DNA from: Candidatus Woesebacteria bacterium RIFCSPHIGHO2_01_FULL_39_32
Lineage (GTDB): Bacteria > Patescibacteriota > Microgenomatia > UBA8517
Reading direction: 5' to 3'
NCBI GenBank assembly: GCA_001792345.1
Contig: MGGJ01000002.1
Span: 1-47,243, forward strand
DNA length: 47,243 nt
In this document: positions 29,328-45,956 of the stretch, piece by piece
Layout: every line of letters starts with the position of its first letter
How positions within the stretch are numbered: the stretch's first letter is position 1
Made by a program: the position numbers and the translations under genes
Notes under the pieces: model-generated
Told to the model about the DNA's origin: nothing
Database searches by the model: none
Seen by the model: only the letters and a program-made list of their open reading frames with translations

Positions 29328-29355
29328 GCACTTATACCCTTCTACTCTTATACTC
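29324..29355 (-). repeat. Octamer array, right flank, inverted relative to the left
   Basis: Minus strand GAGTATAA GAGTAGAA GGGTATAA GTGCGTGA. Confidence 0.75.
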
Positions 29356-29444
29356 TATATCGTGAACCCTTTTTTTCAAGACTATAGCTTTTTCACAGGG
29401 AGAGTTGTGTTAAAAGGTGCGTTGGGGTGGTAAAATATGGGTAT

Positions 29445-31706
29445 ATGGTAGAACAAGGATCAACGGAAAAGGCCGACAAAGAAGAAAGAGCTCCATTGCA
29501 GCCGGATGTAAAATCCGATAAGGGTGCTACTGAATCTGATGAAACCCAAAATTCTTCTAAAAAAAGTAAAGAGGACGAACTGGTTGAAGCAGTAAGAGAG
29601 ATTACTTCTGCAGTAAATCAGGCAAATAAGGACATTGTGGCGTCCGTTAATAATCTAGCAGGCCAACTTGAAGCTTACGCTAAAGCAATAGGCCAGCAAA
29701 TAGCCCTACTCGAGAAAAGAAAAGATACGGCATTGGTTGACGCAACGATTGATGCAATGGTCAAAAAATTAGAGCCGGTTATTAGAGAATTTACTGAGGC
29801 ACTAGATGGTGTAAAAGACGCTTCAGATCGGGAATTTAGACAACTTAAATATAACGAAGATTTGATGAAGGCTTATTTAGAACAAATCGAGCAGGCACAA
29901 AATATTCCAGACGAACTTAAAAACCCCACCCTTGACAGGATGATCGGACGTTTATCCGATGAGGATAAAGCGGAGTATGAAGCTACTGTAAGAGAAGAAG
30001 TAAGAAATGGTAGAACAGTGGAAATCCATCAGGTACGCGGTAAGGAATGGAATGAGACAAATGAAGTTTACCAAAACATGGTTGAGGATTGGTTTGAAGA
30101 AAGAATTAGGGAAATGGAATCAGTCGAGCAATCATTCGAAGAACAACCCGATGTTTATCGATATTTATCTCTTTATGCAAACAACTATGTTCTTAGGAAA
30201 GATACGAAACCGTTTGGGGAAAGAATTAGAGACAACCTTGAGACAAGAAGAATTAGACATAGAGTCGTTAGAGTTTGGAATATGGCGGGACCTGAAGGAA
30301 TTTTAAGTGAAGCTTCAAGAATTACCTTCACTACTTGGAGAAAGTTATTTAAGACCGAAAATATTGGAACTTATGTGTTAGATAGACGTGGTAATAGAGT
30401 AAAAGATCCGAAAACGGGTGAAGATAGAAAAGAAAACCACATTGAAAACGAACTTCAAAATTACGAGAGAATGGGAAGAATTTTGAGGGGGAAAAGAGAT
30501 AGGTTAAGACAAATTCAAAGGTCGCCTGGGGGTGGAGATAAGACAGAAATTAAGGCCTTGGAAAAAGAGATAAAGATTAAAGAGCAGTATATTTTTGACT
30601 ATTACAGTCTGGGGGGTTCGATAGAGGATACAAATCCAGACTTTTTTGTAAAGCTGGGTGGTGAGATCGAAAAACCCAAAGACGAAGATTTCAGAAAATA
30701 TCAGATAGAGCACCCAAATCCTGATTTAAGTAGCAAAAAAGCCAGAGAGCATAGAGATGCAATTTGGGCCAAGAGATATGCCGGAGGACTTTGGAGTATG
30801 ACTTTGAGAGCCGCCACCCACGACATTCAACTAAATGGTAGTGGTGATTTTTTTGCAGCAAGAATAATGAATTTCAGCGACCGTCTGACTAGAAATAACC
30901 TAATGAGAGATTCAAGCGAAATATGGGATCCGACTAGGGTGGATGACCCCTTTGATTTGGGGTATATGGATGTAATGACTTCGCTCTTGGGGAATGTTGA
31001 GAACCTAGATAGTTTGGGAGTTTCAGGGAATCAGAAAGTGGTGTCTGGAGAAAAAGTTGTCGGCATAAAAAGCTTAGAAAATTTTAAGTGGGGCAGTAGC
31101 GAGGTTTGGGATAAAGCGTTAATGAAAGAGGATATTAGACCACCAGAGGGGATGTATGTTATTAGGATGACGTATTTTAACGATGCCGACAATACTCGAA
31201 AGAGAATGTGGGCTGCAGATAGCTATTTCCATAAACCAACGCTTGAAAATTTAATCAATATGGAAGGTGTATTTGCACATTCAGGAACTGGAAAAAGAGA
31301 CGCGATAATAAAAGATAGTTCCGGCGAAAGGGTAATTGGAACCGTAAAAGATATTACTCCTATCGAAGTAAAGTGGATGGAGCTTCTTGATAGGTCGTTA
31401 GAATACTTAAAAACCAAACAAGGTGCGGAATGGATGAGCGATCCTACAACTGGTTATCCTCGTCTTGCTATGACTCGTGAGTGGATCAATACTGCACGTA
31501 GAAATGGAATGATTGGTGAAGAGACAAAAAATATTTTATTAAGAAAATATTTTGGAACAAGGAATACCTTTCTGCTTAATAGGATATCGGAAATTAACGT
31601 GTGGGGGGCTGATTTAATACATAATGCAGGAGGTATGACTTGGAGCGCCTTCATGGAATATATTAAAAGAATGTTTAAATATATGTTTTCAGATGAAGTT
31701 AGATAG
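29445..31706 (+). CDS. Large charged, probably helical hypothetical protein
   Basis: 759-aa ORF; likely ATG at 29445, 8 nt after TAAAAT; no family recognised. Confidence 0.75.
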   Translation: MVEQGSTEKADKEERAPLQPDVKSDKGATESDETQNSSKKSKEDELVEAVREITSAVNQANKDIVASVNNLAGQLEAYAKAIGQQIALLEKRKDTALVDATIDAMVKKLEPVIREFTEALDGVKDASDREFRQLKYNEDLMKAYLEQIEQAQNIPDELKNPTLDRMIGRLSDEDKAEYEATVREEVRNGRTVEIHQVRGKEWNETNEVYQNMVEDWFEERIREMESVEQSFEEQPDVYRYLSLYANNYVLRKDTKPFGERIRDNLETRRIRHRVVRVWNMAGPEGILSEASRITFTTWRKLFKTENIGTYVLDRRGNRVKDPKTGEDRKENHIENELQNYERMGRILRGKRDRLRQIQRSPGGGDKTEIKALEKEIKIKEQYIFDYYSLGGSIEDTNPDFFVKLGGEIEKPKDEDFRKYQIEHPNPDLSSKKAREHRDAIWAKRYAGGLWSMTLRAATHDIQLNGSGDFFAARIMNFSDRLTRNNLMRDSSEIWDPTRVDDPFDLGYMDVMTSLLGNVENLDSLGVSGNQKVVSGEKVVGIKSLENFKWGSSEVWDKALMKEDIRPPEGMYVIRMTYFNDADNTRKRMWAADSYFHKPTLENLINMEGVFAHSGTGKRDAIIKDSSGERVIGTVKDITPIEVKWMELLDRSLEYLKTKQGAEWMSDPTTGYPRLAMTREWINTARRNGMIGEETKNILLRKYFGTRNTFLLNRISEINVWGADLIHNAGGMTWSAFMEYIKRMFKYMFSDEVR

Positions 31707-31736
31707 AATAGAAATTAAAAAGAAGTAAAATATATT

Positions 31737-33305
31737 TTAATTTGAAATTCTAAGTATTTTTCCCAACCGACTTCCTGCCAGCTGTTCGTATAATTTCTGA
31801 CCTCTTTGTTTTCCGTAAGCCTCCTTCAATGAACCCAATTGGTACCCAAACGGTGACCAAACAGCTCCGGCACCCGCTGCAATCGGTGCTCCAATTGCGG
31901 TTCCGTAGCCAAATGGTCTACCTGATAGTGCGGATTGAATAATGTTGGCAATACTCGGAGCTAGCATTAAAATACCAAAAGCAACAAGAAAGCCGAAGAT
32001 TCCACCTACCGGTAAATTAAATCCCGGCAGTTGAATTGATCCGGTGGTACCCAAAGGATCAATTTCTAAAGGGTTTATTATATTTACATTGGGAAAGAGA
32101 TTATTAAGAGCAATAAACAATTGATCCATAAGAGACGCATTTGGATTTGCGTCCAAAGAACTCCAAAATATATAGTGGGCCAAGAAAAACATTGCAATCA
32201 CCCCCGGAAACACAGCCACTTGAGAAGCTAGATTTTTCAGCCAACCACCGAAACCCCCACTACCGGGAAAAACACCCGCCAATATTAAAAGAGGACTAAA
32301 TATAATAAGAAGAACAACGTTGATAAATGTTCTAAAAAGAACCCATATAATTCGTACCCAGACTATGATGTAAACAATTATTAATATTATAAAAATTACA
32401 ACCGAAAGAATTGACAATAGTGCACCTAGGCCGAAAGCGAAGGTCAGTCCGGATCCTCCGGGAAACATAATTAAACCGATGATATAGACCAGAAGCGTAA
32501 TGGCCATTGAGGTAAAAAGATTAACACCCAATAGTTGTCCGAAAAGTGCAGTACCGTCAAGACCGCTAATTGGATCTGCGGCTAGGGCGAGGATTCCTAC
32601 CAAGGCATAGGAAAGATCGATAATAAAACCTGCTATTGCATACGAAAACGTGATGAAAATAAGAATCATAACAAGTCGAGGTATGGCTGATTGGATAGTA
32701 ATGACGGTTTGTGGAGAAATTTTTACCCTAAACATTATCATGAAGGCTAGAACCACAAATGCCAAAACCATAAGGAAATAGGCGAAGTTTCTTGTTGCGC
32801 CCCATATTTGTTGAATCGGAGAAAGTGTTCCAAAACCAAATCCTGTCTGGGCTTTCGCTTCGGGTATTAAGTGTAGTTTCGATAGAGTATTTCGAATGTA
32901 ACCAATTCCGGAAGAAGTAGACGATAAAGTTATACGGTTAAATGTGGAGGCAAGAGAGGGTTGTCCAGCGTCTCCAGTGCCAAAATTCTCATCAATCCAT
33001 GGTTTTATACAAGCAGCTATTGCGTTTAAGTCGGCACTATCTGCTTTTGTAAAACACTGCAATAATTCTTCTGGCATTAGAACCGCAATCAGTGAATACC
33101 AAATCCAGACAACCTGGGCTTGAGTATAGCGCTCACCAAAAATTTCGTCTTCATTATTTGGGTCATATACTTTTGCAAAAAATTCGTTAATTGTCGGGTG
33201 ATACCAGGTACCGCCTTTTGTAACTTGTGCATGTGCGTAAGGGGTAACTAAAGTTACCAAAAGAAAAGAAGCCAGTATTATTGAGAGGAGGAGTTTTTTA
33301 AACAT
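31737..33305 (-). CDS. VirB6/TrbL-like polytopic membrane protein
   Basis: Signal peptide, multiple TMs, RNFAYFLMV...IIDLS, LLIIFSPLLILAGVFPG...WLKNL; T4SS context. Confidence 0.7.
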   Translation of the reverse strand: MFKKLLLSIILASFLLVTLVTPYAHAQVTKGGTWYHPTINEFFAKVYDPNNEDEIFGERYTQAQVVWIWYSLIAVLMPEELLQCFTKADSADLNAIAACIKPWIDENFGTGDAGQPSLASTFNRITLSSTSSGIGYIRNTLSKLHLIPEAKAQTGFGFGTLSPIQQIWGATRNFAYFLMVLAFVVLAFMIMFRVKISPQTVITIQSAIPRLVMILIFITFSYAIAGFIIDLSYALVGILALAADPISGLDGTALFGQLLGVNLFTSMAITLLVYIIGLIMFPGGSGLTFAFGLGALLSILSVVIFIILIIVYIIVWVRIIWVLFRTFINVVLLIIFSPLLILAGVFPGSGGFGGWLKNLASQVAVFPGVIAMFFLAHYIFWSSLDANPNASLMDQLFIALNNLFPNVNIINPLEIDPLGTTGSIQLPGFNLPVGGIFGFLVAFGILMLAPSIANIIQSALSGRPFGYGTAIGAPIAAGAGAVWSPFGYQLGSLKEAYGKQRGQKLYEQLAGSRLGKILRISN

Positions 33306-33365
33306 GGACTTAATAAGTTAATAATAGCATACCACTTATACTTAAATGCAAGTGTATTTATTTCG

Positions 33366-36188
33366 TTAAAGACAAGATCCGTAAATAGTCAGTGCATTAA
33401 CAGTGTGATCTGCAGGATTACACGACCCGGCCCAGTTTACGAGTGCGGTAACAACGTCTTCACAACTCCAACTACTTTTTTGACAACTGCTACCTCCTCC
33501 GGCTGGATCTGAGAGATCATAGTTTATACTACCAGGCTTACAAGGTGAATTAGCGAGGTTGAAAAGCGCTTTATGATTATTAGCTAGCCATTCTGCCATA
33601 TTCATGGTTGCTTCGTAAAAATTACACGGGTTATAACCGCTTGGACACTGCTGATAGGGTCCGAAAGCACCCCCACCAACATAACAGAAGTCTCCCTGGT
33701 TTGCATTATAATTACAGGGTGGATCGTAGTATGTGGGGTTACAATTAGGAAATTCACATAATACGGCATTGGTAATATTTTCCTGTGTATATCTTCCATA
33801 GCAACTCGGGTTTGCAACACGGGGTTCAAACCCGCCCTCTGCATACATCAGGGCTGCGATAAGATCAGGCGGAACATTATATTGGCTACCCGCGGATTCA
33901 AAAACCTTTCTCATAAGATCAGGTATTGTTTCGTTTCTTATCTGGGTGTGAGAAAGCTTACAACTAGAGTCAGTGGGTAGAGGCGGTATTTCGGTAAATG
34001 GACACTCAGCCGGTGGGATAGGCTGAGCCGAGGCGGAAAGACAGCCTTGTCCATATCCTTGTGGTCTTAAAGCAGTTTGCATACACTGCAGGAAATATTG
34101 GTGAATTCCCCCGATGTAGCGGAAATAAAGTTCAGCCTGGCCAGGAATTCGGTTGTTGCCCGCCCTTATTGATAAACCAGGTGTTAGCGGGATAAAATCC
34201 ACGGGCGTTGCGCCGGGAATTGCCCAAAGCCGTCTTATGGGACGCCCTTCCACGTCTTCGATTTTAGGGAACATTCTTTTGAAAACACTGGAAGGACCGG
34301 CAACAAGTTTCGACCAGACTTCTTTGGCGAGAGGAGTTTTGGTTATAGTTTTAAAATTAACGGCAACTGTATTGCTACAGGTTTCAGTAAAGTCAAATGC
34401 TGAAATATCGACAGTTATGGGTTCGCATTTTTTGTATACAGTTATATTTCCGGAACATTCAAGTCCACCGCAACATTCTCCGATCGGTGTTCCAAACATC
34501 TCACAAGTTTCATCCTCTCCTAAGCAGCCGGGAGGTGAAGGCCAAGAACCACAGCCGACTCCGCAAAACTCATTATCACCACAATCAACTTGTCCGTAGT
34601 ATGTTGTACAATCCAAATCCTCTTGCGGTAAGGGTTCGCAATTACCCCCGGACGCTTCGCAAACTCTTCCTTCACCTGCTACTGCTTTAGTAAAGGTGCA
34701 GGCAACTTGGGCTGTATATGCAACTGTTGCGGAGAGCTCGCCCGCAAAAAGATCATCCCCCGGATTTGTGCGAACTTCGGTCAGGTCACAAAATTTATCA
34801 TAAGGGACATAGCTTGATCCCGGTTCGGCGTCAAGGTCGGCTTCCTGGGGTGAATAAACTTGCTGCAAAAGATCTGCCAACTCAAATGATTCCTGCATGT
34901 GGGCAAAGAAAAGATCTGCCGGTTCCTGATTTATTATTGAAGAATCAATAATAACTACATCATTCGGATTGGAAGGCTGAATTGCATAGTCGTCTATTTC
35001 TACATTGCCAAGTCTATCTTCGGTTGACGAGAAAGGGATGTAGGTGAATAACCTCCAGGGATTATCTGCTCTCCAGGATAGATAAGCTGACCAGAAGTCC
35101 TCCCAAGTGCCGAAGTTACGTCTCAATGGGGGAAGGTTAAACTTACTAATCCAGTCGGTGAGGCGAATCTTATCCTTAATAATATTAGTATAACAACCTG
35201 CGGGATGCCCCAAAAGATTTGTACAACCGATTATTTGGTCATGTCTTATGCAGTTTGGGTCTTTTGGAACGGCATTCGGATCACAGTTAATCGAGCGCTG
35301 TGCTTTCCTTACTTCCTCACCCCTTCTTACTATTTGACTTTCCCAAGACAAAAGTCGTTTCAAAGGGCCGGAGAAATCAACCAACCTTTTCTCTCCCTCT
35401 TCTGAAAGTCCGCCCAAAAGATTTGTGTCCGGCGGATTATACTCTGCCCGTCCGATGAGGCCGTTTATGTACCAACTGACATATTCATTTACTTTGGTTG
35501 GATCATCAACCGTTTCATCTCCCTGAAAAAGGCTATTTACTACCTTATATGGATCAGATTCATTTCCCAATGAGGGTTCGGTAAAACCCATGATGGGAAA
35601 GTAGGCTTCCCTAAGATCAACCGCAATATCCCTTACCCGATCTATAATAAAGTAACAAGTTTCTGTCCCATTTCCATTATCTATGCACTCGCTTGCCGCA
35701 CAGTCATTATTATCTTTACAACCTACGTCCGGTATACAAGCGCTGATATTTCTGTCTACACATTGTCCACTGCCATTACAGTATTTGCAGCTAAAAAAGA
35801 AGTCAGAGCCGCCTGAGATTGGAGGAAACGGTTGAATTTCATTTCCTTCAAAAAAATACTTCCAGTCAAGGGAAGGAATCATGTTGCCGTCGGAATATCT
35901 TTTTTCGATAACTATTGGATCAAGCAAAACCAGATCGTTTCCGCAAAAAAGAGCCAGATCTTCAGCATCAGGATTGCAAGGACTTGCTTGGTAAGGCCTT
36001 AGAGAGTGGAATTCGTTGTCACTAGTTTCGTTACAAGGAAAGGGCGTGGGGGTTGGCATAGGTATAGCCTCTTGAGCGATGACCGGTTTTCCGAAATCGA
36101 TGTATGGGAAAAGCAGGTATAGAAAGAACCCAAAAAGTATGGATAGGAGTAGATAAATATTTTTTTTGTAAGTTCTAAATAAGCGCAT
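33366..36188 (-). CDS. Large secreted Cys-rich protein with C-terminal lysozyme-like/transglycosylase domain
   Basis: N-terminal TM/signal; AGSQYNVPPDLIAALMYAEGG and GAFGPYQ motifs resemble the SLT fold. Confidence 0.6.
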   Translation of the reverse strand: MRLFRTYKKNIYLLLSILFGFFLYLLFPYIDFGKPVIAQEAIPMPTPTPFPCNETSDNEFHSLRPYQASPCNPDAEDLALFCGNDLVLLDPIVIEKRYSDGNMIPSLDWKYFFEGNEIQPFPPISGGSDFFFSCKYCNGSGQCVDRNISACIPDVGCKDNNDCAASECIDNGNGTETCYFIIDRVRDIAVDLREAYFPIMGFTEPSLGNESDPYKVVNSLFQGDETVDDPTKVNEYVSWYINGLIGRAEYNPPDTNLLGGLSEEGEKRLVDFSGPLKRLLSWESQIVRRGEEVRKAQRSINCDPNAVPKDPNCIRHDQIIGCTNLLGHPAGCYTNIIKDKIRLTDWISKFNLPPLRRNFGTWEDFWSAYLSWRADNPWRLFTYIPFSSTEDRLGNVEIDDYAIQPSNPNDVVIIDSSIINQEPADLFFAHMQESFELADLLQQVYSPQEADLDAEPGSSYVPYDKFCDLTEVRTNPGDDLFAGELSATVAYTAQVACTFTKAVAGEGRVCEASGGNCEPLPQEDLDCTTYYGQVDCGDNEFCGVGCGSWPSPPGCLGEDETCEMFGTPIGECCGGLECSGNITVYKKCEPITVDISAFDFTETCSNTVAVNFKTITKTPLAKEVWSKLVAGPSSVFKRMFPKIEDVEGRPIRRLWAIPGATPVDFIPLTPGLSIRAGNNRIPGQAELYFRYIGGIHQYFLQCMQTALRPQGYGQGCLSASAQPIPPAECPFTEIPPLPTDSSCKLSHTQIRNETIPDLMRKVFESAGSQYNVPPDLIAALMYAEGGFEPRVANPSCYGRYTQENITNAVLCEFPNCNPTYYDPPCNYNANQGDFCYVGGGAFGPYQQCPSGYNPCNFYEATMNMAEWLANNHKALFNLANSPCKPGSINYDLSDPAGGGSSCQKSSWSCEDVVTALVNWAGSCNPADHTVNALTIYGSCL

Positions 36189-36192
36189 AAAC

Positions 36193-36507
36193 CTACTGAG
36201 TTATTTTAAAGTTTAAAATATTTAGTTGTCCTGTAAAGACGCCGACAAATCTCAAAAACATATAAGAAAGCGCTACAAGGACAATTCCTCCGATTGCATA
36301 GGTTAATGTCTTTTTGGCTTGTTCAAGTGCTTTAGGATCACCGGCTGAAGTTATAAATTGAATTCCTCCCCAGATAAGCATTGCAAAAAGAAGTATCCCA
36401 CCAAGTCCGAGAAGTGCTGCGAGTGTGTTTGCAAATATTCCTTCAAATCCTTGTAAGGTTGCAATTCCGTTAACGTTAGTTACTTGAGCAAGTAAAAAGG
36501 AACTCAT
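36193..36507 (-). CDS. VirB2/TrbC-like pilin 1
   Basis: Two TMs around GGIQFITSAGDPKALEQAKKTLTYAIGG. Confidence 0.8.
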   Translation of the reverse strand: MSSFLLAQVTNVNGIATLQGFEGIFANTLAALLGLGGILLFAMLIWGGIQFITSAGDPKALEQAKKTLTYAIGGIVLVALSYMFLRFVGVFTGQLNILNFKITQ

Positions 36508-36549
36508 AACTTTAGTGTAGCGAAAGAACCAAAGAAGGGCAACTCCAAT

Positions 36550-36573
36550 AAAAAACCCCGCATCTGCGGGGTT
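36550..36573 (-). terminator. Rho-independent terminator after pilin 2
   Basis: Minus strand AACCCCGCA-GA-TGCGGGGTTTTTT. Confidence 0.8.
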
Positions 36574-36593
36574 ATCCTCTTTCCTTAGCTATT

Positions 36594-36953
36594 TTAGACA
36601 CCACCTTGGGCGTTTGGAATGTTGAGCGACAAGATATTTATACCAAAAAAGATGTTAACAAGATTTATTATCGCCCAGGCTGCAAACACAATTACTAAAC
36701 CAATTAAAGCTGCTGTAATTTGGCCTCTGGCTGCCTCGGTCTGAGCTTTATCTCCTCCAGAGGTGATGTACTTAATACCACCCCAAACCAGCATGAAGAA
36801 GAAAATTAGTGCTGCAATGATAAGAACAAGAATTATGAGCGCTGAAATAATTGTAGCAATCGTAATATTATTGAGACCCGAAAATTGTCCTCCCGGACCA
36901 ATGTTAATGGCTTGATCTGCTTGGGCTAATATTGTGCTGAAAGCTGTAAACAT
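36594..36953 (-). CDS. VirB2/TrbC-like pilin 2 (candidate major pilin)
   Basis: GGIKYITSGGDKAQTEAARGQITAALIG. Confidence 0.85.
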   Translation of the reverse strand: MFTAFSTILAQADQAINIGPGGQFSGLNNITIATIISALIILVLIIAALIFFFMLVWGGIKYITSGGDKAQTEAARGQITAALIGLVIVFAAWAIINLVNIFFGINILSLNIPNAQGGV

Positions 36954-36969
36954 ACTTATACTGATTAGT

Positions 36970-36999
36970 ATTATGCTGATAACTAAAATCCTTTGTCAA
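36970..36999 (-). promoter_or_regulatory. Promoter of pilin 2
   Basis: Minus strand TTGACA, 18 bp, CATAAT. Confidence 0.7.
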
Positions 37000-37023
37000 G
37001 TGGGAAAATCTATCAATATTTAT

Positions 37024-37398
37024 TTAGGGACAGATTACCCCGGAGAACGTTATATTAAATTCTCCCACATTAATCCGTCCGATACCGATGCCAAAGAAAC
37101 ACGATACCAAATTTAGTATTGCAAAAAAACCAAGTAAAATTACAACTCCAACTAGAGCACTTGCAATTTTACTGCGAGCAGACTCCATTTTCATTTTGTC
37201 TCCACCTGAGCTGATCCACTGAATTGCACCGTAAATTAAAATAAAAACAAATACGATTGCCCCAATTACAAAACCCAAACCAACAAGAGCAGGTATCAGT
37301 TTGCCAAAAAATTCCGGGCCAGTGAGAGCCCCAAGATCTCCCAATGCGGGATTACTTATTATCTGTGCGATTAGAGGTGAAACAATAAGTGTTTCCAT
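37024..37398 (-). CDS. VirB2/TrbC-like pilin 3
   Basis: GAIQWISSGGDKMKMESARSKIASALVG; start METLI at 37398. Confidence 0.8.
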   Translation of the reverse strand: METLIVSPLIAQIISNPALGDLGALTGPEFFGKLIPALVGLGFVIGAIVFVFILIYGAIQWISSGGDKMKMESARSKIASALVGVVILLGFFAILNLVSCFFGIGIGRINVGEFNITFSGVICP

Positions 37399-37399
37399 T

Positions 37400-37771
37400 T
37401 TACGGTAGTCTAATTGCTTCAATCATAGCACCCAAATCAAGAATACTAGGAAGACCAAGTAAAATTGCGATTAGGCTCATGATAAACATTCCGGCTATAA
37501 CCGCGACAAATCCAATAACACCAGTAGATAGTTTTCTTCTCGCATTCTCGTAGGCTGCTTTATCTCCTCCCGAAGAAATAATTGCTATAGCTCCAGTTAT
37601 GAGCATAAACATAAAATATAACGCTCCTATTATTGTCAGAAGACCAATAATAGCTGAGATGACCTGGGCTAATAATGTAATTGCGTTACTATACGTCCCT
37701 CCTTGCAACCCCAAGTTTCCTATTCCACTTAAAGGACCTATGGGGTTGGACTGTTGTGCTAGATAATTCAT
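37400..37771 (-). CDS. VirB2/TrbC-like pilin 4
   Basis: GAIAIISSGGDKAAYENARRKLSTGVIG. Confidence 0.8.
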   Translation of the reverse strand: MNYLAQQSNPIGPLSGIGNLGLQGGTYSNAITLLAQVISAIIGLLTIIGALYFMFMLITGAIAIISSGGDKAAYENARRKLSTGVIGFVAVIAGMFIMSLIAILLGLPSILDLGAMIEAIRLP

Positions 37772-38127
37772 TGTGGTGTAAAGTATTGAATGTTTAGTAG
37801 CGCCCCCGGATTACCATAAAGGATCTCTCCTATTATTGCTGCGATTAGAAATGCGCCGGCGGCGACTAGTAATCCCAGTAGACTTTGCCAGATTTTCGCA
37901 GTTGCGTCGCTGATTCTTTTAGGATCTCCACTCGCAGATATGAAAGCAAGGCCCGCTATAACTAGGTTTATTACCGCGTATATTCCTGCAACGACGATAA
38001 GGGTTCTTAATATAATATTCAATAGGACTGCTATCCCGCCAACCCCTCCTCCATCAAATGCTTGTAAGAAGTCGGGTGGATTAACAGGACCCCAAGGATT
38101 TTGTGCTATTTTCATATTACTAAACAT
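37768..38127 (-). CDS. VirB2/TrbC-like pilin 5
   Basis: AGLAFISASGDPKRISDATAKIWQSLLG. Confidence 0.8.
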   Translation of the reverse strand: MFSNMKIAQNPWGPVNPPDFLQAFDGGGVGGIAVLLNIILRTLIVVAGIYAVINLVIAGLAFISASGDPKRISDATAKIWQSLLGLLVAAGAFLIAAIIGEILYGNPGALLNIQYFTPQ

Positions 38128-38128
38128 T

Positions 38129-38443
38129 CTACTCGAAAATAGGGATACCTAGCGAGCTTTCAATAAACCGTACGATCAAGAATGCCGCTAAGACTATTAT
38201 AAACCCAATAAAGCCTGCAGTGATAATATTTTGTCCTTGCTGGAATTTTTGAGAGTCACCACCCGCGGTTATCATTTGAAATCCGGCAAAGATGATTAAG
38301 AATAGAAATATTACTCCGGCAACAACTATTGCATTATTAGCTATAAGAGAAACCAACTGTCCAAGACCAGGTAAGTCGGCCAAAAAATGACCTGTTTTTC
38401 CAAAAAATGTGTCTCCGATGGGAACTTGGGCAATTTTATTCAT
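38129..38443 (-). CDS. VirB2/TrbC-like pilin 6
   Basis: AGFQMITAGGDSQKFQQGQNIITAGFIG. Confidence 0.8.
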   Translation of the reverse strand: MNKIAQVPIGDTFFGKTGHFLADLPGLGQLVSLIANNAIVVAGVIFLFLIIFAGFQMITAGGDSQKFQQGQNIITAGFIGFIIVLAAFLIVRFIESSLGIPIFE

Positions 38444-38474
38444 ACTTAATTCTAGTACAATATTATGTTATAAC

Positions 38475-38508
38475 TCAAATTTTAAATCTCAAAACAATAT
38501 CTTAAAAC
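38475..38508 (+). repeat. Heptamer array, left flank of the intact four-helix-bundle gene
   Basis: TCAAATT TTAAATC TCAAAAC AATATC TTAAAAC. Confidence 0.65.
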
Positions 38509-38511
38509 TTT

Positions 38512-38916
38512 TTAACTTCTTTTACCTTTCAAAGTTAGAAGGCTTGCAGCAATCATCTTTCCGATTTCTTTTACCTCTGTGATGAGAGGTTCTGATTTTC
38601 CCGCTTCCACTAATTTGGAATCTTTAAGAAGCATCAACCAATAAATGGTTTCGTTGGCGCTTTTGAGAGCAATCTCATAAAATTTTATGAAATCTCTCCT
38701 CGAGCTAGAGGATTTGGCTTCGACCAAATTTGCTCCGATAGAAGTTGAACTACGTAACAGTTGATCTCCTATTATCCAGTAGGCTCTTTTTTGAGGAAAA
38801 TCTTTAACTAGATCAATTATAGTAAGCGAAAACTTATAAGCTCGGTATTTTACGTTAGATTTAAGATTTGCGTTGTGGTTTTGAGTTTTGACATATGACA
38901 TTTGAGTTTGATTCAC
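38512..38916 (-). CDS. Four-helix-bundle protein (23S rRNA-IVP/Avd-like)
   Basis: RAYKFSL, DQLLRSSTSIGANLVEA, SRRDFIKFYEIALKSANETIYWL, EVKEIGKMI. Confidence 0.9.
   Translation of the reverse strand: MNQTQMSYVKTQNHNANLKSNVKYRAYKFSLTIIDLVKDFPQKRAYWIIGDQLLRSSTSIGANLVEAKSSSSRRDFIKFYEIALKSANETIYWLMLLKDSKLVEAGKSEPLITEVKEIGKMIAASLLTLKGKRS
38857..38912 (-). repeat. Heptamer array at the gene's 5' end, inverted relative to the left flank
   Basis: Minus strand TCAAAC TCAAATG TCATATG TCAAAAC TCAAAAC CACAACG CAAATC TTAAATC. Confidence 0.75.
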
Positions 38917-39293
38917 CCAAAAATATCTATAATTGGCGGCAGATCTAGAATTCGTGCAACGAGTTGTACTAGCCAGAAAGATACAAAAACTATTATAAAC
39001 CCAACAATTGCATTATAAATTTTTTGTTGGCCGGCGGCTAACGCCTTAGGATCATTTTGTGAAGTAAGAATTTGGAACCCTCCGAGAATGATGAATAAAA
39101 GAATAAGAAAGCCAGCAAGACCAAAGACATAAGGTAATAATTCTTGAATTATTCTGCCAATAGTAAAATTTCTTAATCTGAAGATGGCTGTTCCCATTAG
39201 ATTTGAAAAATCAATACCAGCACTCGGTACTTGAGCATGTACTGTCTGGGGAAAGATGGAAGTTATAATTGTTAATACAATAAGAAATAGCAT
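38913..39293 (-). CDS. VirB2/TrbC-like pilin 7
   Basis: Signal peptide ending VHA-Q; GGFQILTSQNDPKALAAGQQKIYNAIVG. Confidence 0.8.
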   Translation of the reverse strand: MLFLIVLTIITSIFPQTVHAQVPSAGIDFSNLMGTAIFRLRNFTIGRIIQELLPYVFGLAGFLILLFIILGGFQILTSQNDPKALAAGQQKIYNAIVGFIIVFVSFWLVQLVARILDLPPIIDIFG

Positions 39294-39300
39294 ATATGTG

Positions 39301-40419
39301 CTATTTTAAACCTGGTATTTTGAGTATTTCAACCCCGATTAAGTTAAGAATGTACGCTCCAAATAGAAGTAAGACTACGCCCATCACGGCTGCCGTGAGA
39401 AGCTCTTTTCCTGCTTGAAGTCTTTGTGGGTTACCCCCAGAAGTAATAATCATAAACCCTGCATATATAATAAGTATTAATGCAATACCACCAACTATTC
39501 CAATTCCCCAAAGTATAACAAATCTTGCAAATGCATTCTGTTCAGTAATAGGAATACATCCAATTGCAGTATAAATTTCTGCTGTACAGTCACCTATGCC
39601 TGGAGTATCGCAAGGCTTTCCATTTTTGTCACAGAAAATTTTAATAGGCGAGGCTTTGATTGATTTGCAGGCTGCTTCACAAAGAGCGAGATCTCCATAA
39701 GTGCCTGTCCCTGATTCATTACAGCCCACACCAGGAATACACGCATATTTTAATGGTACGCCCCCACTACAAGCCTGATCGCAAGATGTATAGTCGGCGT
39801 ACTCTGGGGGCGCGCATCCAAAATTTGTGCTAGTTGCGTAACACGGCAAACACAATCCTGCCGTCTCACAAAAGTACCCGGTAACAGCGGCCGGTGGCTC
39901 TTGGCATTTTAAATTAGCGCCTCCACCCGCATAATTATTACACACAAGTCCACTACAACAACCATCTTGTGTTCCTGGTGGACCAGTACAAGGATCATCT
40001 AAATTGCCACAGGATGCGGGAGTTGTGCAAGTTAAATTCCCCGCAACGTTGTTGCATACAAATCCATCACAACAGCTTCCTTGTGTGCCGACGGTTCCTG
40101 TGCAAGTATCTCCTTCGTTGTCACATACAGGAGCTTCTAAGCAGTTCCCAGCCGGTTGGCCGGCCATACACGGGAAAGTGAGGGTGTTACATAAATTGGG
40201 GTCTGGAAAATAACCAGCCAGATTACAACTCGATAAGTTAAAATCTACTCTACAACCAGCGCTTGGGTTAGCGTCATCCACGGGGTAACAATATGTACAA
40301 GGCAATCCTGTTACGGGGTCACAGTCGGTAACTTGAGCAAATACTGGACTAGAGACAAAAGAAGAAGAAAGTAAATAAAAAGTAATTATGGAGAAGAGGA
40401 TTAATAGAAACTTTCTCAT
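39301..40419 (-). CDS. Cys-rich extracellular protein fused to a C-terminal pilin domain
   Basis: Signal peptide; Cys-rich repeats; IYTAIGCIP; AGFMIITSGGNPQRLQAGKELLTAAVMG. Confidence 0.8.
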   Translation of the reverse strand: MRKFLLILFSIITFYLLSSSFVSSPVFAQVTDCDPVTGLPCTYCYPVDDANPSAGCRVDFNLSSCNLAGYFPDPNLCNTLTFPCMAGQPAGNCLEAPVCDNEGDTCTGTVGTQGSCCDGFVCNNVAGNLTCTTPASCGNLDDPCTGPPGTQDGCCSGLVCNNYAGGGANLKCQEPPAAVTGYFCETAGLCLPCYATSTNFGCAPPEYADYTSCDQACSGGVPLKYACIPGVGCNESGTGTYGDLALCEAACKSIKASPIKIFCDKNGKPCDTPGIGDCTAEIYTAIGCIPITEQNAFARFVILWGIGIVGGIALILIIYAGFMIITSGGNPQRLQAGKELLTAAVMGVVLLLFGAYILNLIGVEILKIPGLK

Positions 40420-40463: not shown

Positions 40464-42224
40464 ATGAAAAGCGCAATGAATAGCGAAAAGCAGCGAGAAA
40501 CAAGTAAGGGGTTATTTTTAAAAGGAAAAATATTTATTTCTTTGTTTGTTTCCCTTTTCTTACTTCTTACTTCTTACTTCTTACTTCTTAAATCTATTTC
40601 CGCTGAGCCTGACTGCGACAACCCTAATCCGGGTGACATAGACTTTTGTTTACAAAGAATTGAAGCTGAATTAAGCGCCCTAAAACCGGCCCAAGAATAT
40701 AACAAAAAAGAACTTGCTGATTTACGAACACAGATTTCCAGCTTGGAAAAAAGGATTTCCGGGATTTCAAACCAATTGGGAGTACTTGAAGGGGACATTG
40801 GAAAAAGAGAAGAGGATCTTGCCTACGCCCAGGAAATTTTTGTTGAGAAAACCAAAAACCACTACAGATTCTTGCGCTTTTATGATCCGCTTTTACCCTT
40901 TTTATCTACAGAGAACGCATCAAGTGCATTTAGAGAAATAATATTTAGACAAAAAGCCGCAAACGAAGACATTAAAACGATGGAGGGGTATGGAGCTGAT
41001 TTACTTGCCCTTAAAACCGACAAAGAAAATCTCGAAAAAAGTAAGACCAGCCTTTCCTCTATAAAGAGTCAGGTTGGTCAAAGAGCGCAATTTTTAGCCG
41101 GTGAGGTTGAGAAAACCGAGAAGTATCTTTCCGCCCTTTCTTCAAAACAAGAAGAACTTATTGCTCTAAAAGCCGGAGGATTTCAAACTTCAGTTGGAGA
41201 TACTCCCGCAACAGCAGAACCATGCTCCGGTCCTCCCGGATCTTCGAATTATTGCGATCCCGGTTTTAGACCTGCCTTTGCTGGGTTTTCCTTTGGTGCT
41301 CCTCATAGAACAGGCTTAAGTCAATACGGTGCATATGGAAGAAGTAAACAGGGACAGTCTGCTGAAGCTATTTTAGGAGCATATTATCAGGGAGCTGAAC
41401 TCAATAAATCCTTTCCCATTCCTGATACGATTGGAGTATCAGGCTACGGGAGAATTCCTTTTGAGGATAATTACTTACTGGGAATTTATGAGGTTCCTGA
41501 GTCCTGGGGTAATAATGGTGGTTTTGAGGCTTTGAAAGCGCAGGCTGTTGCGGCCCGCTCGTATGCCTTAGCAGTTACCGGCAACGGCGCCGGAACTATT
41601 TGTCCTACGGAATCCTGCCAGGTTTATAAACCCCAACTAAAAAGCGGTAAATGGGCAGAGGCGGTGCGTGCAACACGTGGTTGGGTAATGGTAAAGGGAG
41701 GAACGGCTGCAACAACTTATTATGCCTCAACCTCCGGTGGATATACGATTTCTCAGTGGGGTTGGTCAGGTATAAAAGACACTAACGGTGATTGGCCAAG
41801 TGGCGCCTATGAGAAATTATCTGGATCTCCTTGGTTTTATAAAGCATGGTTTAGAACTAGAGGGGGGGCGACCTGTGGCAAGGCGAACCCCTGGTTAAAT
41901 AATCAGGAAATGGCAGATATATTAAATGCTTGGCATGTTTTATATAAAGGTGGAGGAGATTCGGGAAGAGTCTCACCTATCGACACGAATTGTTGGGGAG
42001 GAAATCCGTATTCGATTAGTGAACTCGCAGGAATGGGAGGATATACCAGCGTTTCAAGTGTAGCCGTTACTTATTCTAACGCGGGGAATACGCAAACTGT
42101 TACATTTGGTACAAATAAAGGTAGTGTTAATCTGTCCGGCGAGGAATTTAAAAAAGCATTTAACCTGCGTGCGCCTGGATACATCGGGTTAAAAAGTAGT
42201 TTATTCAACATCGAGAAGCTGTAA
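40464..42224 (+). CDS. SpoIID/LytB-family protein with N-terminal coiled coil
   Basis: HRTGLSQYGA, YLLGIYEVPESW, EALKAQAVAARSYA, ESCQVY, YYASTSGG. Confidence 0.85.
   Translation: MKSAMNSEKQRETSKGLFLKGKIFISLFVSLFLLLTSYFLLLKSISAEPDCDNPNPGDIDFCLQRIEAELSALKPAQEYNKKELADLRTQISSLEKRISGISNQLGVLEGDIGKREEDLAYAQEIFVEKTKNHYRFLRFYDPLLPFLSTENASSAFREIIFRQKAANEDIKTMEGYGADLLALKTDKENLEKSKTSLSSIKSQVGQRAQFLAGEVEKTEKYLSALSSKQEELIALKAGGFQTSVGDTPATAEPCSGPPGSSNYCDPGFRPAFAGFSFGAPHRTGLSQYGAYGRSKQGQSAEAILGAYYQGAELNKSFPIPDTIGVSGYGRIPFEDNYLLGIYEVPESWGNNGGFEALKAQAVAARSYALAVTGNGAGTICPTESCQVYKPQLKSGKWAEAVRATRGWVMVKGGTAATTYYASTSGGYTISQWGWSGIKDTNGDWPSGAYEKLSGSPWFYKAWFRTRGGATCGKANPWLNNQEMADILNAWHVLYKGGGDSGRVSPIDTNCWGGNPYSISELAGMGGYTSVSSVAVTYSNAGNTQTVTFGTNKGSVNLSGEEFKKAFNLRAPGYIGLKSSLFNIEKL
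40557..40591 (+). repeat. Heptamer tandem repeat in the signal/TM segment
   Basis: (TTCTTAC)x4 + TTCTTAA, encoding LLLTSYFLLL. Confidence 0.9.
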
Positions 42225-43261: not shown

Positions 43262-45166
43262 ATGAGTTATATTATTACCTCGGCAAAAATTACCGGGAAT
43301 CCTGACAAGGGAGGGTGGGCACAGGCTTATCAATTTACACCAGCTGATCCCGAAAAACTTACAAGCCGAGGGCAATTCTTTGCTGTCATTTCCACCGGCA
43401 CTAAAGAAGAAGGTATAGATGCTGTTTCCGCTGGACGCGAGCTACTTTCAAGGGTGCATGAAGAATATTTTGGTAGGGGGGAGGGATCGGCGTTTAGCAC
43501 GCTTTCCTCTTCGGTAGAAAAAGTAATTGAGGAATTTTCTTCTTGGGAGGACGTTGAGATAGGTTGCATTATATATTTAACCGACATTGTATATATTGTG
43601 GTAGGTGGAGGGGCGAAAGTCTACCTTTTACGAAACGATATATTAACCCCCCTTATTCAAAGTGAGAATGGAAAATGTTTGGCCGCTTCGGGGCATCCAC
43701 ACGATTCCGACCTTTTCATTATTGGATCAAGTTCTTTTTTCACTAGTTTTTCGGCGGGTGTTATAAAGGGATCCGCCATTGGAAAGGATCCAAACTATGC
43801 GGTTGAGTCTTTAGCACCGACCCTTCACGCATTGCCTGCAGCTGGAAAAGTTGGCGCTTTGTTTCTTAGTTTCGCGCAAGGCCCAGAAGTTAATGAGCGA
43901 ATTGCCAAAATTGAAAATAAAATACAAAAAGTTCCTATTCCTAGATCTAGCACGAGAGGGGAACTTCCGCCTCAAAATGAAAATGTCGGTACAGGATTTA
44001 TTAAATCCTTACTGAAGCGCGTCAAAGAGACAAGAGTTTATGTACAAGCTGATGCAGGATTTGATCGAGAATCGAATCCCAAAAGAAGGATATCGTTGGG
44101 TTTGGGAGCAGCTCTTCTTGTCCTTCTTGTAGTTAGCATAGTATTTGGTATTAGAGAGAAAAAACAAAAAGATATCAAAGAAAACTATGTTGAGACTTTA
44201 GCTTCCGCATCCCATAACTTGAGTGAAGCAGATGAACTTTATTCTCTTAACCCAGAGCGCTCTCGTGAACTTTTAATTGAAGCACGTCAAAAGGTTCTTG
44301 GTTTATCTTCCGAAGGAGTTCAAGACTCTACATTGGATGAGTTAAAGAAAAAAATTGAAGAGAACGAAAAAAAGATTTTAGGGGAGTTTAGAGTTGAAGC
44401 TGAATCTTTTGTTGAACTCGCGCTTTTATCTGATGGTTTTGAAGCCGACGAGGTAGTTATGTCCCAGGAAGTAGCCTATGTTGTTGACAAGGATAGTAGA
44501 AAAATTATCCGTGTCGGAGTGGGTAACAAAAGGAGTGAAGTTATAGTAGGTCCTCACGTTATAGATAAAATTGATAATATAGCTGTCTACTCGGATAGAG
44601 TATTTGTAGTTAATTCAGAGGGGGTATTTGAAATTGAAGAGGGAAGGGTAGATACGAAGATTGATCCTGAGTGGATGGGGAGTGTTTTAGCATACTCTTA
44701 CGCTGCTAACTTTTATATTCTTGATAAAGGGGCTTCAACAATATATCGCTATACGTCAACTGAGACTGGTTTTGGCAGCAAAAAGGATTGGTTTAACGAG
44801 GGTGTCACTTTTGACGTTTCGGAAGCAAGAGCTTGGGTAATTGATGGCGCAATTTGGTTAGTGACTGAAAAGGGTCAGATTTTAAAGTTTTCGCTTGGGC
44901 TACCACGCCCCTTTTCCTTAACAGGAGTTTTTCCGGTAGTTGGTAAATCCCTTGCAATATACACCGATGATCAACTGGAAAATCTTTACATTCTTGATAA
45001 TGAGAATGAAAGGGTTGTTGTTGTTACTAAAGATGGAGAATATAAGGCGCAGTACATTTCATCGGATATACGGGAATCAAAAGGGTTAGTAGTATCGGAA
45101 AAAGAAAAAAAGATTATTCTACTAAATTCCGATAAACTTCTTTCAATTGAGTTGGAACACCTATGA
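43262..45166 (+). CDS. Membrane protein with degenerate PP2C-like N-terminal domain and C-terminal beta-propeller-like domain
   Basis: N-terminal alpha/beta region, central TM, coiled coil, repeated xYILD blades. Confidence 0.6.
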   Translation: MSYIITSAKITGNPDKGGWAQAYQFTPADPEKLTSRGQFFAVISTGTKEEGIDAVSAGRELLSRVHEEYFGRGEGSAFSTLSSSVEKVIEEFSSWEDVEIGCIIYLTDIVYIVVGGGAKVYLLRNDILTPLIQSENGKCLAASGHPHDSDLFIIGSSSFFTSFSAGVIKGSAIGKDPNYAVESLAPTLHALPAAGKVGALFLSFAQGPEVNERIAKIENKIQKVPIPRSSTRGELPPQNENVGTGFIKSLLKRVKETRVYVQADAGFDRESNPKRRISLGLGAALLVLLVVSIVFGIREKKQKDIKENYVETLASASHNLSEADELYSLNPERSRELLIEARQKVLGLSSEGVQDSTLDELKKKIEENEKKILGEFRVEAESFVELALLSDGFEADEVVMSQEVAYVVDKDSRKIIRVGVGNKRSEVIVGPHVIDKIDNIAVYSDRVFVVNSEGVFEIEEGRVDTKIDPEWMGSVLAYSYAANFYILDKGASTIYRYTSTETGFGSKKDWFNEGVTFDVSEARAWVIDGAIWLVTEKGQILKFSLGLPRPFSLTGVFPVVGKSLAIYTDDQLENLYILDNENERVVVVTKDGEYKAQYISSDIRESKGLVVSEKEKKIILLNSDKLLSIELEHL

Positions 45167-45594
45167 AAATTATCAATAAAAAGGCAAAATTTAACTACAT
45201 TTTATTTGAGAAATTTGAAGCGGGGGTGTCATTAACTGGTGCTGAAGTGAAAGCAATAAAGACAGCTCGTGCTGATTTGTCAAATTCATATGTAAAGATT
45301 ATTCGAGATGAAGCCTATCTTGTTAATGCGAACATTCCTGCTGACGGAGTACAAAATTACAATCCAACACGATCTCGAAAACTTCTTTTGCATAGGGCTG
45401 AACTGGTTTCGTTGTCTACAAAAATGAAGCAAAAAAAATTGACTTTGGTGCCTGTCAAGGTGTATACTAAGGGCCGATTGGTGAAGCTGGAAATAGCTTT
45501 AGCCAAGGCAAAAAGGAAGTTTGAGAAGAAAGAGTCGATTAAGAAAAAAGATATTGAAAGAGAAATTGCACAGCAATTAAGAAGTAGGTATTAG
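45163..45594 (+). CDS. smpB: SsrA-binding protein
   Basis: NKKAKFNY, EAGVSLTGAEVKAI, RKLLLHR, TLVPVKVY. Confidence 0.97.
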   Translation: MKIINKKAKFNYILFEKFEAGVSLTGAEVKAIKTARADLSNSYVKIIRDEAYLVNANIPADGVQNYNPTRSRKLLLHRAELVSLSTKMKQKKLTLVPVKVYTKGRLVKLEIALAKAKRKFEKKESIKKKDIEREIAQQLRSRY

Positions 45595-45600
45595 TTTTTT

Positions 45601-45951
45601 GGGGACGACCGGATTCGACGGAGAGCGTACTTTAAAAACTGCGAGCCAAGTTTGACTTACACTTGTAAAAAGAAGTTAAAAAAATAATTGCTAAACCCAA
45701 TTATAATTTCGCATACGCCTAATAAGTGTTTTTGCGAATGTTTGCTGTTTTGTTTCTCAACCGAAACAGACAAGCATAAACCAGTTGGGATGCGGTAAGT
45801 GCCACTGACTTTAGGTATTTGCCAAAGAGTTAAAGTCAAGCCCCCAATTACTTTGTTGGTTTGGCGAATTGGGAGTCATAAAAAATCAACTAAGCTTGTA
45901 GAAGTTTTTATCTTACCTTTTCGGACGAGGGTTCAACTCCCTCCGTCTCCA
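45601..45951 (+). ncRNA. ssrA: tmRNA
   Basis: 5' GGGGACGAC-CGGATTCGAC; 3' GACGAGGGTTCAACTCCCTCCGTCTCCA; tag ORF at 45690-45722 AKPNYNFAYA* after ATAATT; directly after smpB. Confidence 0.95.
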
Positions 45952-45956
45952 CAAAT

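Follow-up and report, generated by a model that had tools for sequence, protein, structure and literature searches.

A small gene belonging to the family of 23S rRNA intervening-sequence proteins (S23p), flanked by inverted arrays of heptamer repeats, lies between two genes of a pilin operon in a CPR bacterium. It is close to certain that this 441-bp segment, at minus-strand positions 38472-38912 of the window (i.e., of the whole 47,243-nucleotide stretch of DNA that was analyzed), is a cassette of the S23p/IVS type inserted into the operon. We explain it as an S23p master gene with cognate repeats, a reading to which we assign a probability of roughly 0.6, and its relatives form what looks like a family of gene-plus-repeat elements that is widespread and has been largely overlooked in bacteria. 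For the window alone, the result is a smaller one: an old and conserved insertion in a pilin operon.

An S23p cassette between two pilin genes

The original prediction described an intact four-helix-bundle gene with heptamer units at its 5' end and their reverse complements just past the stop codon. Both elements of this description were confirmed: the ORF is intact and has the expected N-terminus (MNQTQMSYVKTQNHNANLKS), and scans for tandem repeats and inverted pairs recovered the two arms (Table 1). We refer to the insert as cassette 2, and to a decayed family member in the same window as cassette 1. The GTG start codon of the S23p gene overlaps the TGA stop codon of the upstream pilin gene (pilin 7), and an in-frame ATG at 38901 would give a 129-aa version of the protein. 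The 5' arm is partly translated, through its overlap with codons 2-19 (the ORF's N-terminal extension), and the 3' arm begins 2 nt past the S23p stop codon. Tandem Repeats Finder reported a period-7 array at 38867-38909 with 6.3 copies of the unit TTTGAGT on the plus strand. Two inverted pairs link the arms, one of 24 nt (38472-38495 and 38885-38908, 83% complementary) and one of 36 nt (38475-38510 and 38863-38898, 72% complementary).

Table 1. Coordinates of the pilin-operon insert, its flanking genes and the second cassette of the window
Feature	Positions	Strand	Remarks
Pilin 6, downstream flank, T4SS-type pilin	38129-38443	-	PF18895 E 2.2e-7
Native spacer before pilin 6, outside the insert	38444-38471	-	similar TAAACTT-type spacer in L041, L043, L044, L046
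3' arm	38472-38510	-	reverse-complement units, NTTTGAN on sense strand; non-coding
S23p / four-helix-bundle gene	38512-38916	-	134 aa from GTG 38916; PF05635 E 1.9e-26
5' arm	38857-38912	-	~8 degenerate 7-nt units, NTCAAAN on sense strand
Pilin 7, upstream flank, T4SS-type pilin	38913-39293	-	PF18895 E 3.2e-8
Cassette 1, decayed family member	28916-29357	-	arms 28916-28943 / 29330-29357

The insertion site lies between the two pilin genes and not in helix 25 or 45 of 23S rRNA. No rRNA was found near the insert, and an Rfam scan of the window at gathering thresholds gave tmRNA only. The four genomes listed in Table 1 for the spacer carry an empty site, and there the TAAACTT-type sequence precedes the pilin-6 start. 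As had been predicted, the element contains no transposase or reverse transcriptase in cis: Pfam detected no transposase domain in the insert, and none of the window ORFs encodes a reverse transcriptase. The S23p protein itself has no recognizable nuclease or recombinase motif. A 141-aa RNase H-type gene accounts for the only RVT_3/RNase_H hit among the window ORFs.

The encoded protein matches PF05635 with 92.8 bits (cut-off 33.8) and TIGR02436, "four helix bundle protein", with 102.4 bits (cut-off 24); both models describe the Avd-like "23S rRNA intervening-sequence protein" (S23p). Its AlphaFold2 model is a helical bundle (pLDDT 89.7), in which the repeat-encoded N-terminal extension appears as a low-confidence helix. 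The closest solved structures in Foldseek searches were 2RLD, an S23 family protein of Bacteroides thetaiotaomicron (E 1e-6, TM(target) 0.85-0.91), and 2GSC, the Xcc0516 protein of Xanthomonas campestris (E 1.7e-4, TM(target) 0.84-0.87). Each of these structures has five chains, and the S23p/Avd family is stated to be pentameric in the available text of PMC4990558 and 10.1101/2023.10.23.563531.

To evaluate the complementarity of the arms, we aligned the 110-nt 5' flank locally with the reverse-complemented 3' flank; as background, the same geometry was placed at random 19,999 times in this genome. Cassette 2 scored 28, compared with a background mean of 15.05 (sd 2.56, 99.9th percentile 28), and a fraction of 0.0011 of the placements reached this score; its arms are more complementary than random AT-rich flanks, as the original prediction had supposed. 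The flanks also share 16 6-mers (reached by a fraction of 0.0014 of random placements). The six canonical cassettes of the genome, cassette 2 included, had scores of 21-37 (fractions 0.0001-0.033). RNAduplex energies computed over the 110-nt flanks gave no separation between cassettes and background, and, because this test lacked discrimination, it was replaced by the alignment and k-mer statistics.

Homologs of pilin 7 occur in 117 of 125 genomes of the family, and nine of the 11 non-self related loci were mapped at the pilin junction (L047 and L048 were left out). Six related genomes from five genera (L040-L044 and L046) have an empty site, with pilin 7 followed directly by pilin 6, so the predicted empty alleles do exist; in L040 and L042 the pilin 7 stop and the pilin 6 start overlap as ATGA. 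A genome of another genus (L039) carries an orthologous cassette in the same pilin slot, whose protein is 80% identical to that of cassette 2, compared with 51-63% for the flanking pilins. Another cassette, with 38% protein identity, the unit TTTCCAG and the opposite orientation, is found just after pilin 7 in L045 and is absent from its congener L049. One breakpoint of the L045 insert falls at the arm itself and the other ~25 nt outside the second arm; thus, this insert consists of arms, a short tail and the ORF, and nothing else. Neither the G117/G118 junctions nor the pilin junction showed a definable target-site duplication.

The cassette occupies the same pilin slot in two metagenome contigs (99% and 81% identity), and the other close relatives of cassette 2 occur in unrelated contexts. 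In the contigs of four metagenome DNA runs, no joint skipping the cassette was seen. Depth over the 5' arm in these data rises to 14-261, with 78 and 261 for the two deepest runs, compared with ~3-4 in the bins just outside the cassette, as many other contigs share the array.

When compared with its ortholog in L039 (genome G017), the S23p gene has a dN of 0.10 and a dS of 1.59 (dN/dS ~0.06), and the flanking pilins in the same comparison have dN values of 0.26-0.32. The 3' arm is identical to that of the ortholog at 38 of 45 positions, with no indels by eye, at a dS of ~1.6. In a further locus (L270), one position is changed on both arms in a compensatory manner. At the level of sequence comparison, the low dN/dS, the conserved 3' arm and the compensatory change together show that the gene and its arms are under purifying selection. 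The best reading of the junction is that the cassette has been vertically inherited since its insertion.

Repeat arrays in the host genome and across bacteria

The host genome (1.17 Mb, 95% complete, CPR) has eight PF05635 matches, six of which are above the cut-off, and all of them are flanked by copy-specific arrays as judged by eye. Cassette 1 is broken, with three stops inside the family match, and its ORF remnant (29046-29327, minus strand, 93 aa) still matches PF05635 with an E value of 6.8e-27. Its arms are 28 nt long and 75% complementary, with an array of 8-nt units at 29331-29356, and its protein is 33% identical to that of cassette 2 over 70 aa. These values bear out a distinct repeat unit and only distant protein similarity for cassette 1, as the original prediction had it. 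A further decayed S23p copy is present at C4:72619. The prediction also mentioned orphan arrays elsewhere in the window, and Tandem Repeats Finder located three of them, at 8239-8273, 40557-40590 and 46553-46580.

Period 7 is the commonest short tandem repeat of this genome: 91 arrays have at least three copies, compared with 37, 20 and 14 for periods 6, 8 and 9, and the copy numbers of period-7 arrays peak a second time at 4-4.9, with a ceiling close to 5. A comparison of orphan arrays with cassette arms by single shared 7-mers was without power (resident mean 17.7, random 17.1), and alignment scores were used for this reason. Seventeen of 86 orphan heptamer arrays match an arm of a resident cassette at a score of at least 30. 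Of the array-cassette pairs, 3.5% match when the cassette is resident, compared with 0.75% when it is one of 28 non-resident cassettes; with random flanks, the figure is 0.02%. These orphan matches come from three of the six cassettes (11, 4 and 2 arrays), with one more for a fourth. Only three orphan arrays resemble the arms of cassette 2 in its own genome, with scores of 24-25 and none reaching 26, which weakly suggests that they are cognate.

Inverted array pairs in the genome fall into two size classes, one of 55-105 nt without an ORF and one of 405-680 nt with an S23p gene. Several of the short pairs are intergenic, one lies in frame within an ArgRS-like gene, and further ORFs include solo arrays that are translated with them; arrays and hairpins with cassette units occur on both strands and within ORFs, including essential ones. 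ORF-less inverted doublets that share the flanking repeat of a gene were found for three of the six cassettes and in other genomes, the case of cassette 2 being weak. We rejected the ArgRS hairpin as a clear extra insertion because it sits in a naturally variable linker, and several inverted pairs of 400-680 nt without a Pfam hit were set aside as ordinary genes or chance.

S23p genes are present in 85 of 139 genomes of the order, with up to 13 matches per ~1-Mb genome. Among order loci with full flanks, 21 of 28 exceed the 95th percentile of a cross-partner control and 4 of 28 the 99th, this control being inflated because related cassettes share units. A profile search of contigs from one genome per species returned 597 relatives. 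The best 80 of the 597, which were the ones examined, span CPR, Elusimicrobiota, Clostridia, Bacteroidota and Gammaproteobacteria, as well as Acidobacteriota, Planctomycetota, Fibrobacter, Collinsella and one archaeon. Usable flanks were available for 77 of these loci. Measured against displaced-flank controls (n=522), 60 of the 77 lie above the 99th percentile, with a mean inverted score of 31.9 for real flanks versus 15.2 for displaced ones. In the other 17, inverted signal was absent within 110 nt, and in at least two loci (L081 and L104) the arrays look direct rather than inverted. When 210 flanks were scanned, 171 carried an array, and the best array had a period of 7, 14, 21 or 28 in 133 of them, with the mode of period-7 arrays at four copies. 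The original prediction of such a family, in which each small Avd-like gene has a unit of its own in inverted microsatellite arms, is supported.

Most clades have 5' units with a terminal TAG and 3' units with a leading CTA, an arrangement that at period 7 would put stop codons into each of the three frames, whichever strand runs into the element. The clade of cassette 2 differs in its unit. It was represented by 73 metagenome relatives with 52-99% identity (seven of 80 were dropped for short flanks), and its unit was scored as at least three TCAAA in the 5' region together with at least three TTTGA in the 3' region. This combination occurs in 47 of the 73 relatives and in none of 77 cross-phylum or 28 order cassettes (0/105), and the TAG/CTA pattern shows the opposite distribution (3/73, 44/77 and 16/28, respectively). 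Protein clade therefore predicts the repeat unit, as had been anticipated, and the unit core is retained at protein divergences at which silent sites are saturated. Since shared descent explains part of this link, the link alone is no proof of recognition.

Cognate arrays were also found in other genomes. With arm patterns of 21 nt and up to three mismatches, four cassettes gave 21, 21, 4 and 12 hits in their own genome versus 1, 0, 1 and 0 in four others. In a 5.4-Mb genome with a single S23p gene, the unit of this gene recurs at 12 or more additional loci, among them close minus/plus pairs. X. phaseoli has one S23p gene only, which lies between accB and accC and is flanked by GGGAATC-type units; GGGAATC arrays number in the hundreds in Xanthomonas, and the pattern has 373 window hits across the X. 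phaseoli genome. One Xanthomonas array (G144:C1:3586076-3586138) has at least 10 units, with seven overlapping exact 21-nt windows. In Luteimonas, GGGATTC is found both in the flanks of the S23p gene and in arrays genome-wide. None of 80 GGGAATC array loci had an S23p ORF within +-700 nt, which is expected if arrays far outnumber genes.

Alternative explanations

An account at the RNA level, which we consider unlikely, would treat the cassette as an RNA-processing module. Its arms would form a stem in the transcript that is cut by RNase III, as in 23S rRNA IVS, so that the S23p mRNA is released or silenced and pilin 7 is uncoupled from pilin 6; the dispersed arrays would be unrelated simple repeats. 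Both the MFE and the centroid fold of the 459-nt sense RNA pair the arms (z = -2.79, with none of 100 shuffles as good), the genome has an RNase III gene, and the upstream neighbor is co-oriented in 28 of 33 cassettes (a raw count). In Coxiella, according to the available text of PMC4990558, a 28-bp stem is built from terminal inverted repeats, RNase III cuts inside this stem, and a 5' processing site is located at the first heptamer repeat. However, the arms show no wobble bias: G:U and A:C mismatches number 51 versus 60 in 34 cassettes, and 136 versus 262 in the clade of cassette 2, the latter being in the wrong direction and confounded by the coding 5' arm. Moreover, the G117 cassette is antisense to its neighbors, arrays and hairpins with cassette units lie on both strands and inside ORFs, and this account does not explain why orphan arrays match resident arms non-randomly. 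The lack of wobble bias and the occurrence of both orientations suggest that RNA pairing and RNase III cutting are likely a consequence of the arms and not the reason why they are kept. Enzymes acting in trans have been considered as well. An RNA intermediate with a trans-acting reverse transcriptase, on which the original prediction speculated, is not supported, since the 95%-complete genome has no RVT_1 match at E <= 0.01 and the arms show no excess of G:U over A:C. Y1 (HUH) transposases co-occur with S23p in 62 of 139 genomes, with 23 genomes having S23p only, 12 having Y1 only and 42 having neither (odds ratio 9.4, uncorrected for kinship). We treat a Y1 transposase as a lead only, as the four Y1-like genes of the present genome have other palindromic flanks and the 23 S23p-positive genomes just mentioned have no Y1 gene.

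The arrays might instead be binding sites of a regulator, in which a ring protein on tandem heptamers controls its own gene and a regulon and nothing is mobile. TRAP, for example, binds spaced triplets in nucleic acid. The clustering of arrays at 4-5 units, the pentameric family with five chains in 2RLD and 2GSC, and the presence of one gene alongside many cognate arrays per genome agree with this idea, as does the published location of TAACTGA arrays just upstream of start codons (available text of PMC4679880). A regulator, though, does not account for precise presence/absence differences between related genomes, for the decay of copies such as cassette 1 and C4:72619, for the patchy, multi-copy spread within the order, or for arrays inside essential ORFs and in rRNA (described in the available part of PMC11270868), and we regard it as quite improbable. 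That the gene is a remnant Avd accessory gene of a diversity-generating retroelement (DGR) is scarcely credible. The fold does resemble Avd, with distant Foldseek matches to Avd (4DWL, E 0.03) and to DGR ribonucleoprotein entries, and there are weak matches to Avd models; but the Avd equivalog model reached 26.1 bits against a cut-off of 80, RVT_1 is lacking from the genome, and the cassette boundaries enclose only the arms and the ORF. That an ordinary small gene lies here between AT-rich flanks that are complementary by chance has a next to negligible probability. This idea might draw on the 38% G+C content of the genome and on the failure of RNAduplex with long flanks to tell cassettes from background, but it is refuted by the alignment and k-mer statistics against random placements and by the recurrence of the same architecture in 60 of 77 unrelated loci, and it is also at odds with the conservation of a non-coding arm at saturated dS.

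A proposed master gene with cognate repeats and its known relatives

In the system that we propose, the arrays would serve both as ends of the element and as recognition sites for its own S23p protein, with approximately one heptamer per protomer of the pentamer. Such a stoichiometry would explain the clustering at 4-5 units and the fact that the unit tracks the protein clade. The arms of cassette 2 have about 4-8 degenerate heptamers per array and several cross-phylum loci exceed five units; since arrays of more than five units occur, the pentamer arithmetic is suggestive only. Pairing of the two arms could give a hairpin in DNA, or a long stem in the transcript of the operon, where RNase III might cut it as in rRNA. 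ORF-bearing copies would be the master copies, and ORF-less hairpins and solo arrays of the same unit would be their non-autonomous relatives, in a relationship comparable to that of RAYT and REPIN or of transposon and MITE. The data show how the element is built, that its insertion is polymorphic, that units are specific to clades, that selection acts on it, and that cognate arrays are dispersed in several genomes; the binding of protein to array, its stoichiometry, and any mobility mechanism or catalytic partner are inferred. Judged from comparative data, the odds that the protein recognizes its own arrays, and that ORF-bearing and ORF-less copies make up one system, appear slightly better than even.

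A broader generalization is offered tentatively, at somewhat less than even odds. S23p proteins may be the missing partner of the heptamer repeats of bacteria (Xanthomonas, cyanobacteria, Beggiatoa and CPR), each clade recognizing its own unit and maintaining or spreading ORF-less arrays and hairpins in the genome, also into rRNA, where they go by the name of IVS, and, in-frame, into proteins. This would amount to a second REPIN/RAYT-like system, built on a non-HUH, Avd-like pentamer. If true, it would unite the rRNA IVS with ORF, the "four helix bundle protein" family and heptamer repeats in one system, and would provide a testable function for the S23p family, i.e., sequence-specific array binding. 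It would further account for the arrival of short hairpins and of repeats that code for peptides in operons, in essential proteins and in rRNA of the tiny CPR genomes, and would yield a set of natural proteins that each have their own 7-nt specificity.

The original prediction considered the element a candidate for an undescribed system, and this wording is too strong. The protein family is already catalogued as PF05635 and TIGR02436, and an ORF combined with tandem heptamers and terminal inverted repeats has already been published for the Coxiella IVS (PMC4990558, as far as its available text goes). There, the IVS is regarded as a selfish element of 428 nt with an S23p ORF, preceded by tandem GACAGAT units before the start codon, three or two depending on the strain, plus a degenerate GACAGAA. 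S23p ORFs are also described in 16S and 23S insertions of CPR bacteria in the available part of PMC11270868. Our best reading is that cassette 2 is the same kind of element as the ORF-containing 23S rRNA IVS of Coxiella burnetii (and of Leptospira, as cited in the available text of PMC4990558), here located in a protein-coding operon. The two share an S23p ORF, heptamers upstream of the start, and bordering complementary sequences able to form a closing stem. They differ in that cassette 2 lies between protein-coding genes and has a partly translated 5' arm, and in that dispersed ORF-less arrays and a unit-clade rule do not appear in the available portions of PMC4990558 and PMC11270868. Among the papers listed by full-text searches, with most subscription journals and supplements outside their scope, none connects the S23p family with heptamer arrays that are dispersed, as a rule with cassettes outside rRNA, or with a relation of the REPIN kind.

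The arrays resemble heptamer tandem repeats reported as GGGAATC in Xanthomonas, GGGGA(C/T)T in Nostoc and TAACTGA in Beggiatoaceae and cyanobacteria, which also have a period of 7 and a few to a dozen copies. These unexplained repeats often form convergent pairs; for GGGAATC, the available text of PMC4692102 counts 70 pairs for X. campestris and 75 for X. axonopodis pv. citri, and it presents an array of 14 units as an example. The TAACTGA heptamers are intergenic or in-frame in ORFs (available text of PMC4679880). The portions of these two papers that were available tie no gene to the repeats, whereas in our data the GGGAATC-type unit borders the one S23p gene that X. phaseoli has. With Avd of DGRs, the S23p protein shares a homologous fold and the pentamer family, and in a solved ribonucleoprotein the Avd pentamer binds a stem-loop of the DGR RNA (10.1101/2023.10.23.563531, available text), which sets a precedent for the proposed binding; the present element differs in having no reverse transcriptase and no template or variable repeats.

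RAYT/REPIN (REPtron) systems, described in part in the abstracts of PMC3116915 and 10.1101/2022.05.22.493013, likewise have a single or low-copy gene flanked by its own inverted repeats, many ORF-less inverted doublets dispersed in the same genome, a repeat type for each gene clade, and mostly vertical inheritance. In contrast to them, the gene here encodes a four-helix bundle and not an HUH tyrosine transposase, and the repeats are tandem heptamer arrays and not single palindromes. Transposons and their MITEs, where the terminal inverted repeats contain several sites for protein binding, offer a similar parallel: autonomous and ORF-less copies share ends made of repeated sites, and the end sequence co-varies with the encoded protein. 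The S23p cassettes are set apart from them by the lack of a transposase fold, of a target-site duplication at the junctions analyzed and of recent identical copies.

Heptamer arrays in the source genome and within its coding sequences

We surveyed short tandem repeats across the source genome (G000) and found that the commonest period is 7, with 91 arrays of at least three copies, against 37, 20 and 14 for periods 6, 8 and 9, respectively. The copy numbers of period-7 arrays have a second mode at 4-4.9 and hardly ever exceed 5, whereas those of the other periods fall monotonically.

Three orphan heptamer arrays of the window lie inside ORFs (see table). The TTCTTAC unit occurs a second time in the genome, at C13:134373, and the 3' arm of an S23p cassette (a four-helix-bundle gene between two arrays) at C5:1972 resembles the window array (score 32). 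Translation of the window array yields the hydrophobic segment at the N-terminus of the SpoIID-like protein. An ArgRS-like gene of the same genome carries both solo arrays and an ORF-less hairpin, i.e., an inverted array pair without a gene. Its N-terminal arrays correspond to approximately 17 extra residues relative to most orthologs, and in the hairpin the single TAG that would be in frame is altered.

Features of the window (bare coordinates) and of contigs C1, C5 and C12 of the source genome
Feature	Location	Remark
TCACCAA x5 array	8239-8273	within TsaD-like ORF
T4SS-like cluster	25322-40419	includes pilin array
TraG/VirB4-type ATPase	25322-27256	T4SS-like cluster
PrgI-like protein	27935-28912	T4SS-like cluster
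TTCTTAC x4.9 array	40557-40590	perfect; translated in-frame in SpoIID-like protein (40464-42224)
smpB	45163-45594	tmRNA directly after
tmRNA	45601-45954	168.7 bits
CACTAAT x4 array	46553-46580	within double-zinc-ribbon ORF
152-aa ORF	C1:104885-105382	between inverted arrays of 15-nt unit
Four RAYT-like Y1 (HUH) ORFs	C12:87186, C1:154569, C1:380662, C1:407536	223-252 aa
Tandem cluster	C5:1158-2335	one S23p cassette in tandem with three hairpins that lack an ORF; AGATGTAAG-type unit throughout
Long S23p forms	C12:78660-79202 and C12:53119-53325 region	TIGR04258 suffix domain
ArgRS-like gene repeats (L349)	C12:79366-79431 and 80780-80851	in-frame: two solo arrays, one full ORF-less hairpin

Variant cassettes, Y1 genes and the T4SS-like cluster

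In the long S23p forms, the second array is located within the ORF, between the bundle and the suffix, and encodes a Tyr/Lys-rich repeat. The 152-aa ORF looks Trp-repressor-like, as judged from sequence alone, and this locus may represent a different cargo with ends similar to those of S23p cassettes.

Each of the four Y1 ORFs is bracketed on both sides by its own short palindromes, and a GATTAGCTTGCA-type motif is common to the flanks of two of them. Across the order, S23p genes and RAYT-like Y1 genes co-occur with an uncorrected odds ratio of 9.4.

The T4SS-like cluster of the window also encodes large Cys-rich secreted proteins, eight small T4SS_pilin-type genes and a 372-aa protein with a weak C-terminal T4SS_pilin match. 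Cassette 1, the second, decayed S23p cassette, is located in this cluster too.

Array families and cassettes in other genomes

Within 110 nt, the arrays that flank two cassettes, in Faecalibacter (L081) and Collinsella (L104), look like direct repeats instead of inverted ones. The reversed-pattern controls of the arm-pattern searches incidentally matched other array families in G139 and G143: 38 in a Sphingobacterium genome (an ATTGGTG-type array) and 98 in a Thiohalocapsa genome (a CTAAGGG-type array). These matches indicate several array families per genome in both.

The only S23p cassette of each genome occupies the accB/accC slot in both Xanthomonas phaseoli and Luteimonas (L258, L259), and the cassette is therefore old there too. 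Exact GGGAATC x3 arrays are present in very distant taxa, namely Xanthomonas, Luteimonas, Gemmatimonadaceae, Moorena, Microcoleus, Nostoc, Acidobacteriota and Vibrio jasicida (loci L130-L209), and this distribution hints that one unit type has spread horizontally.
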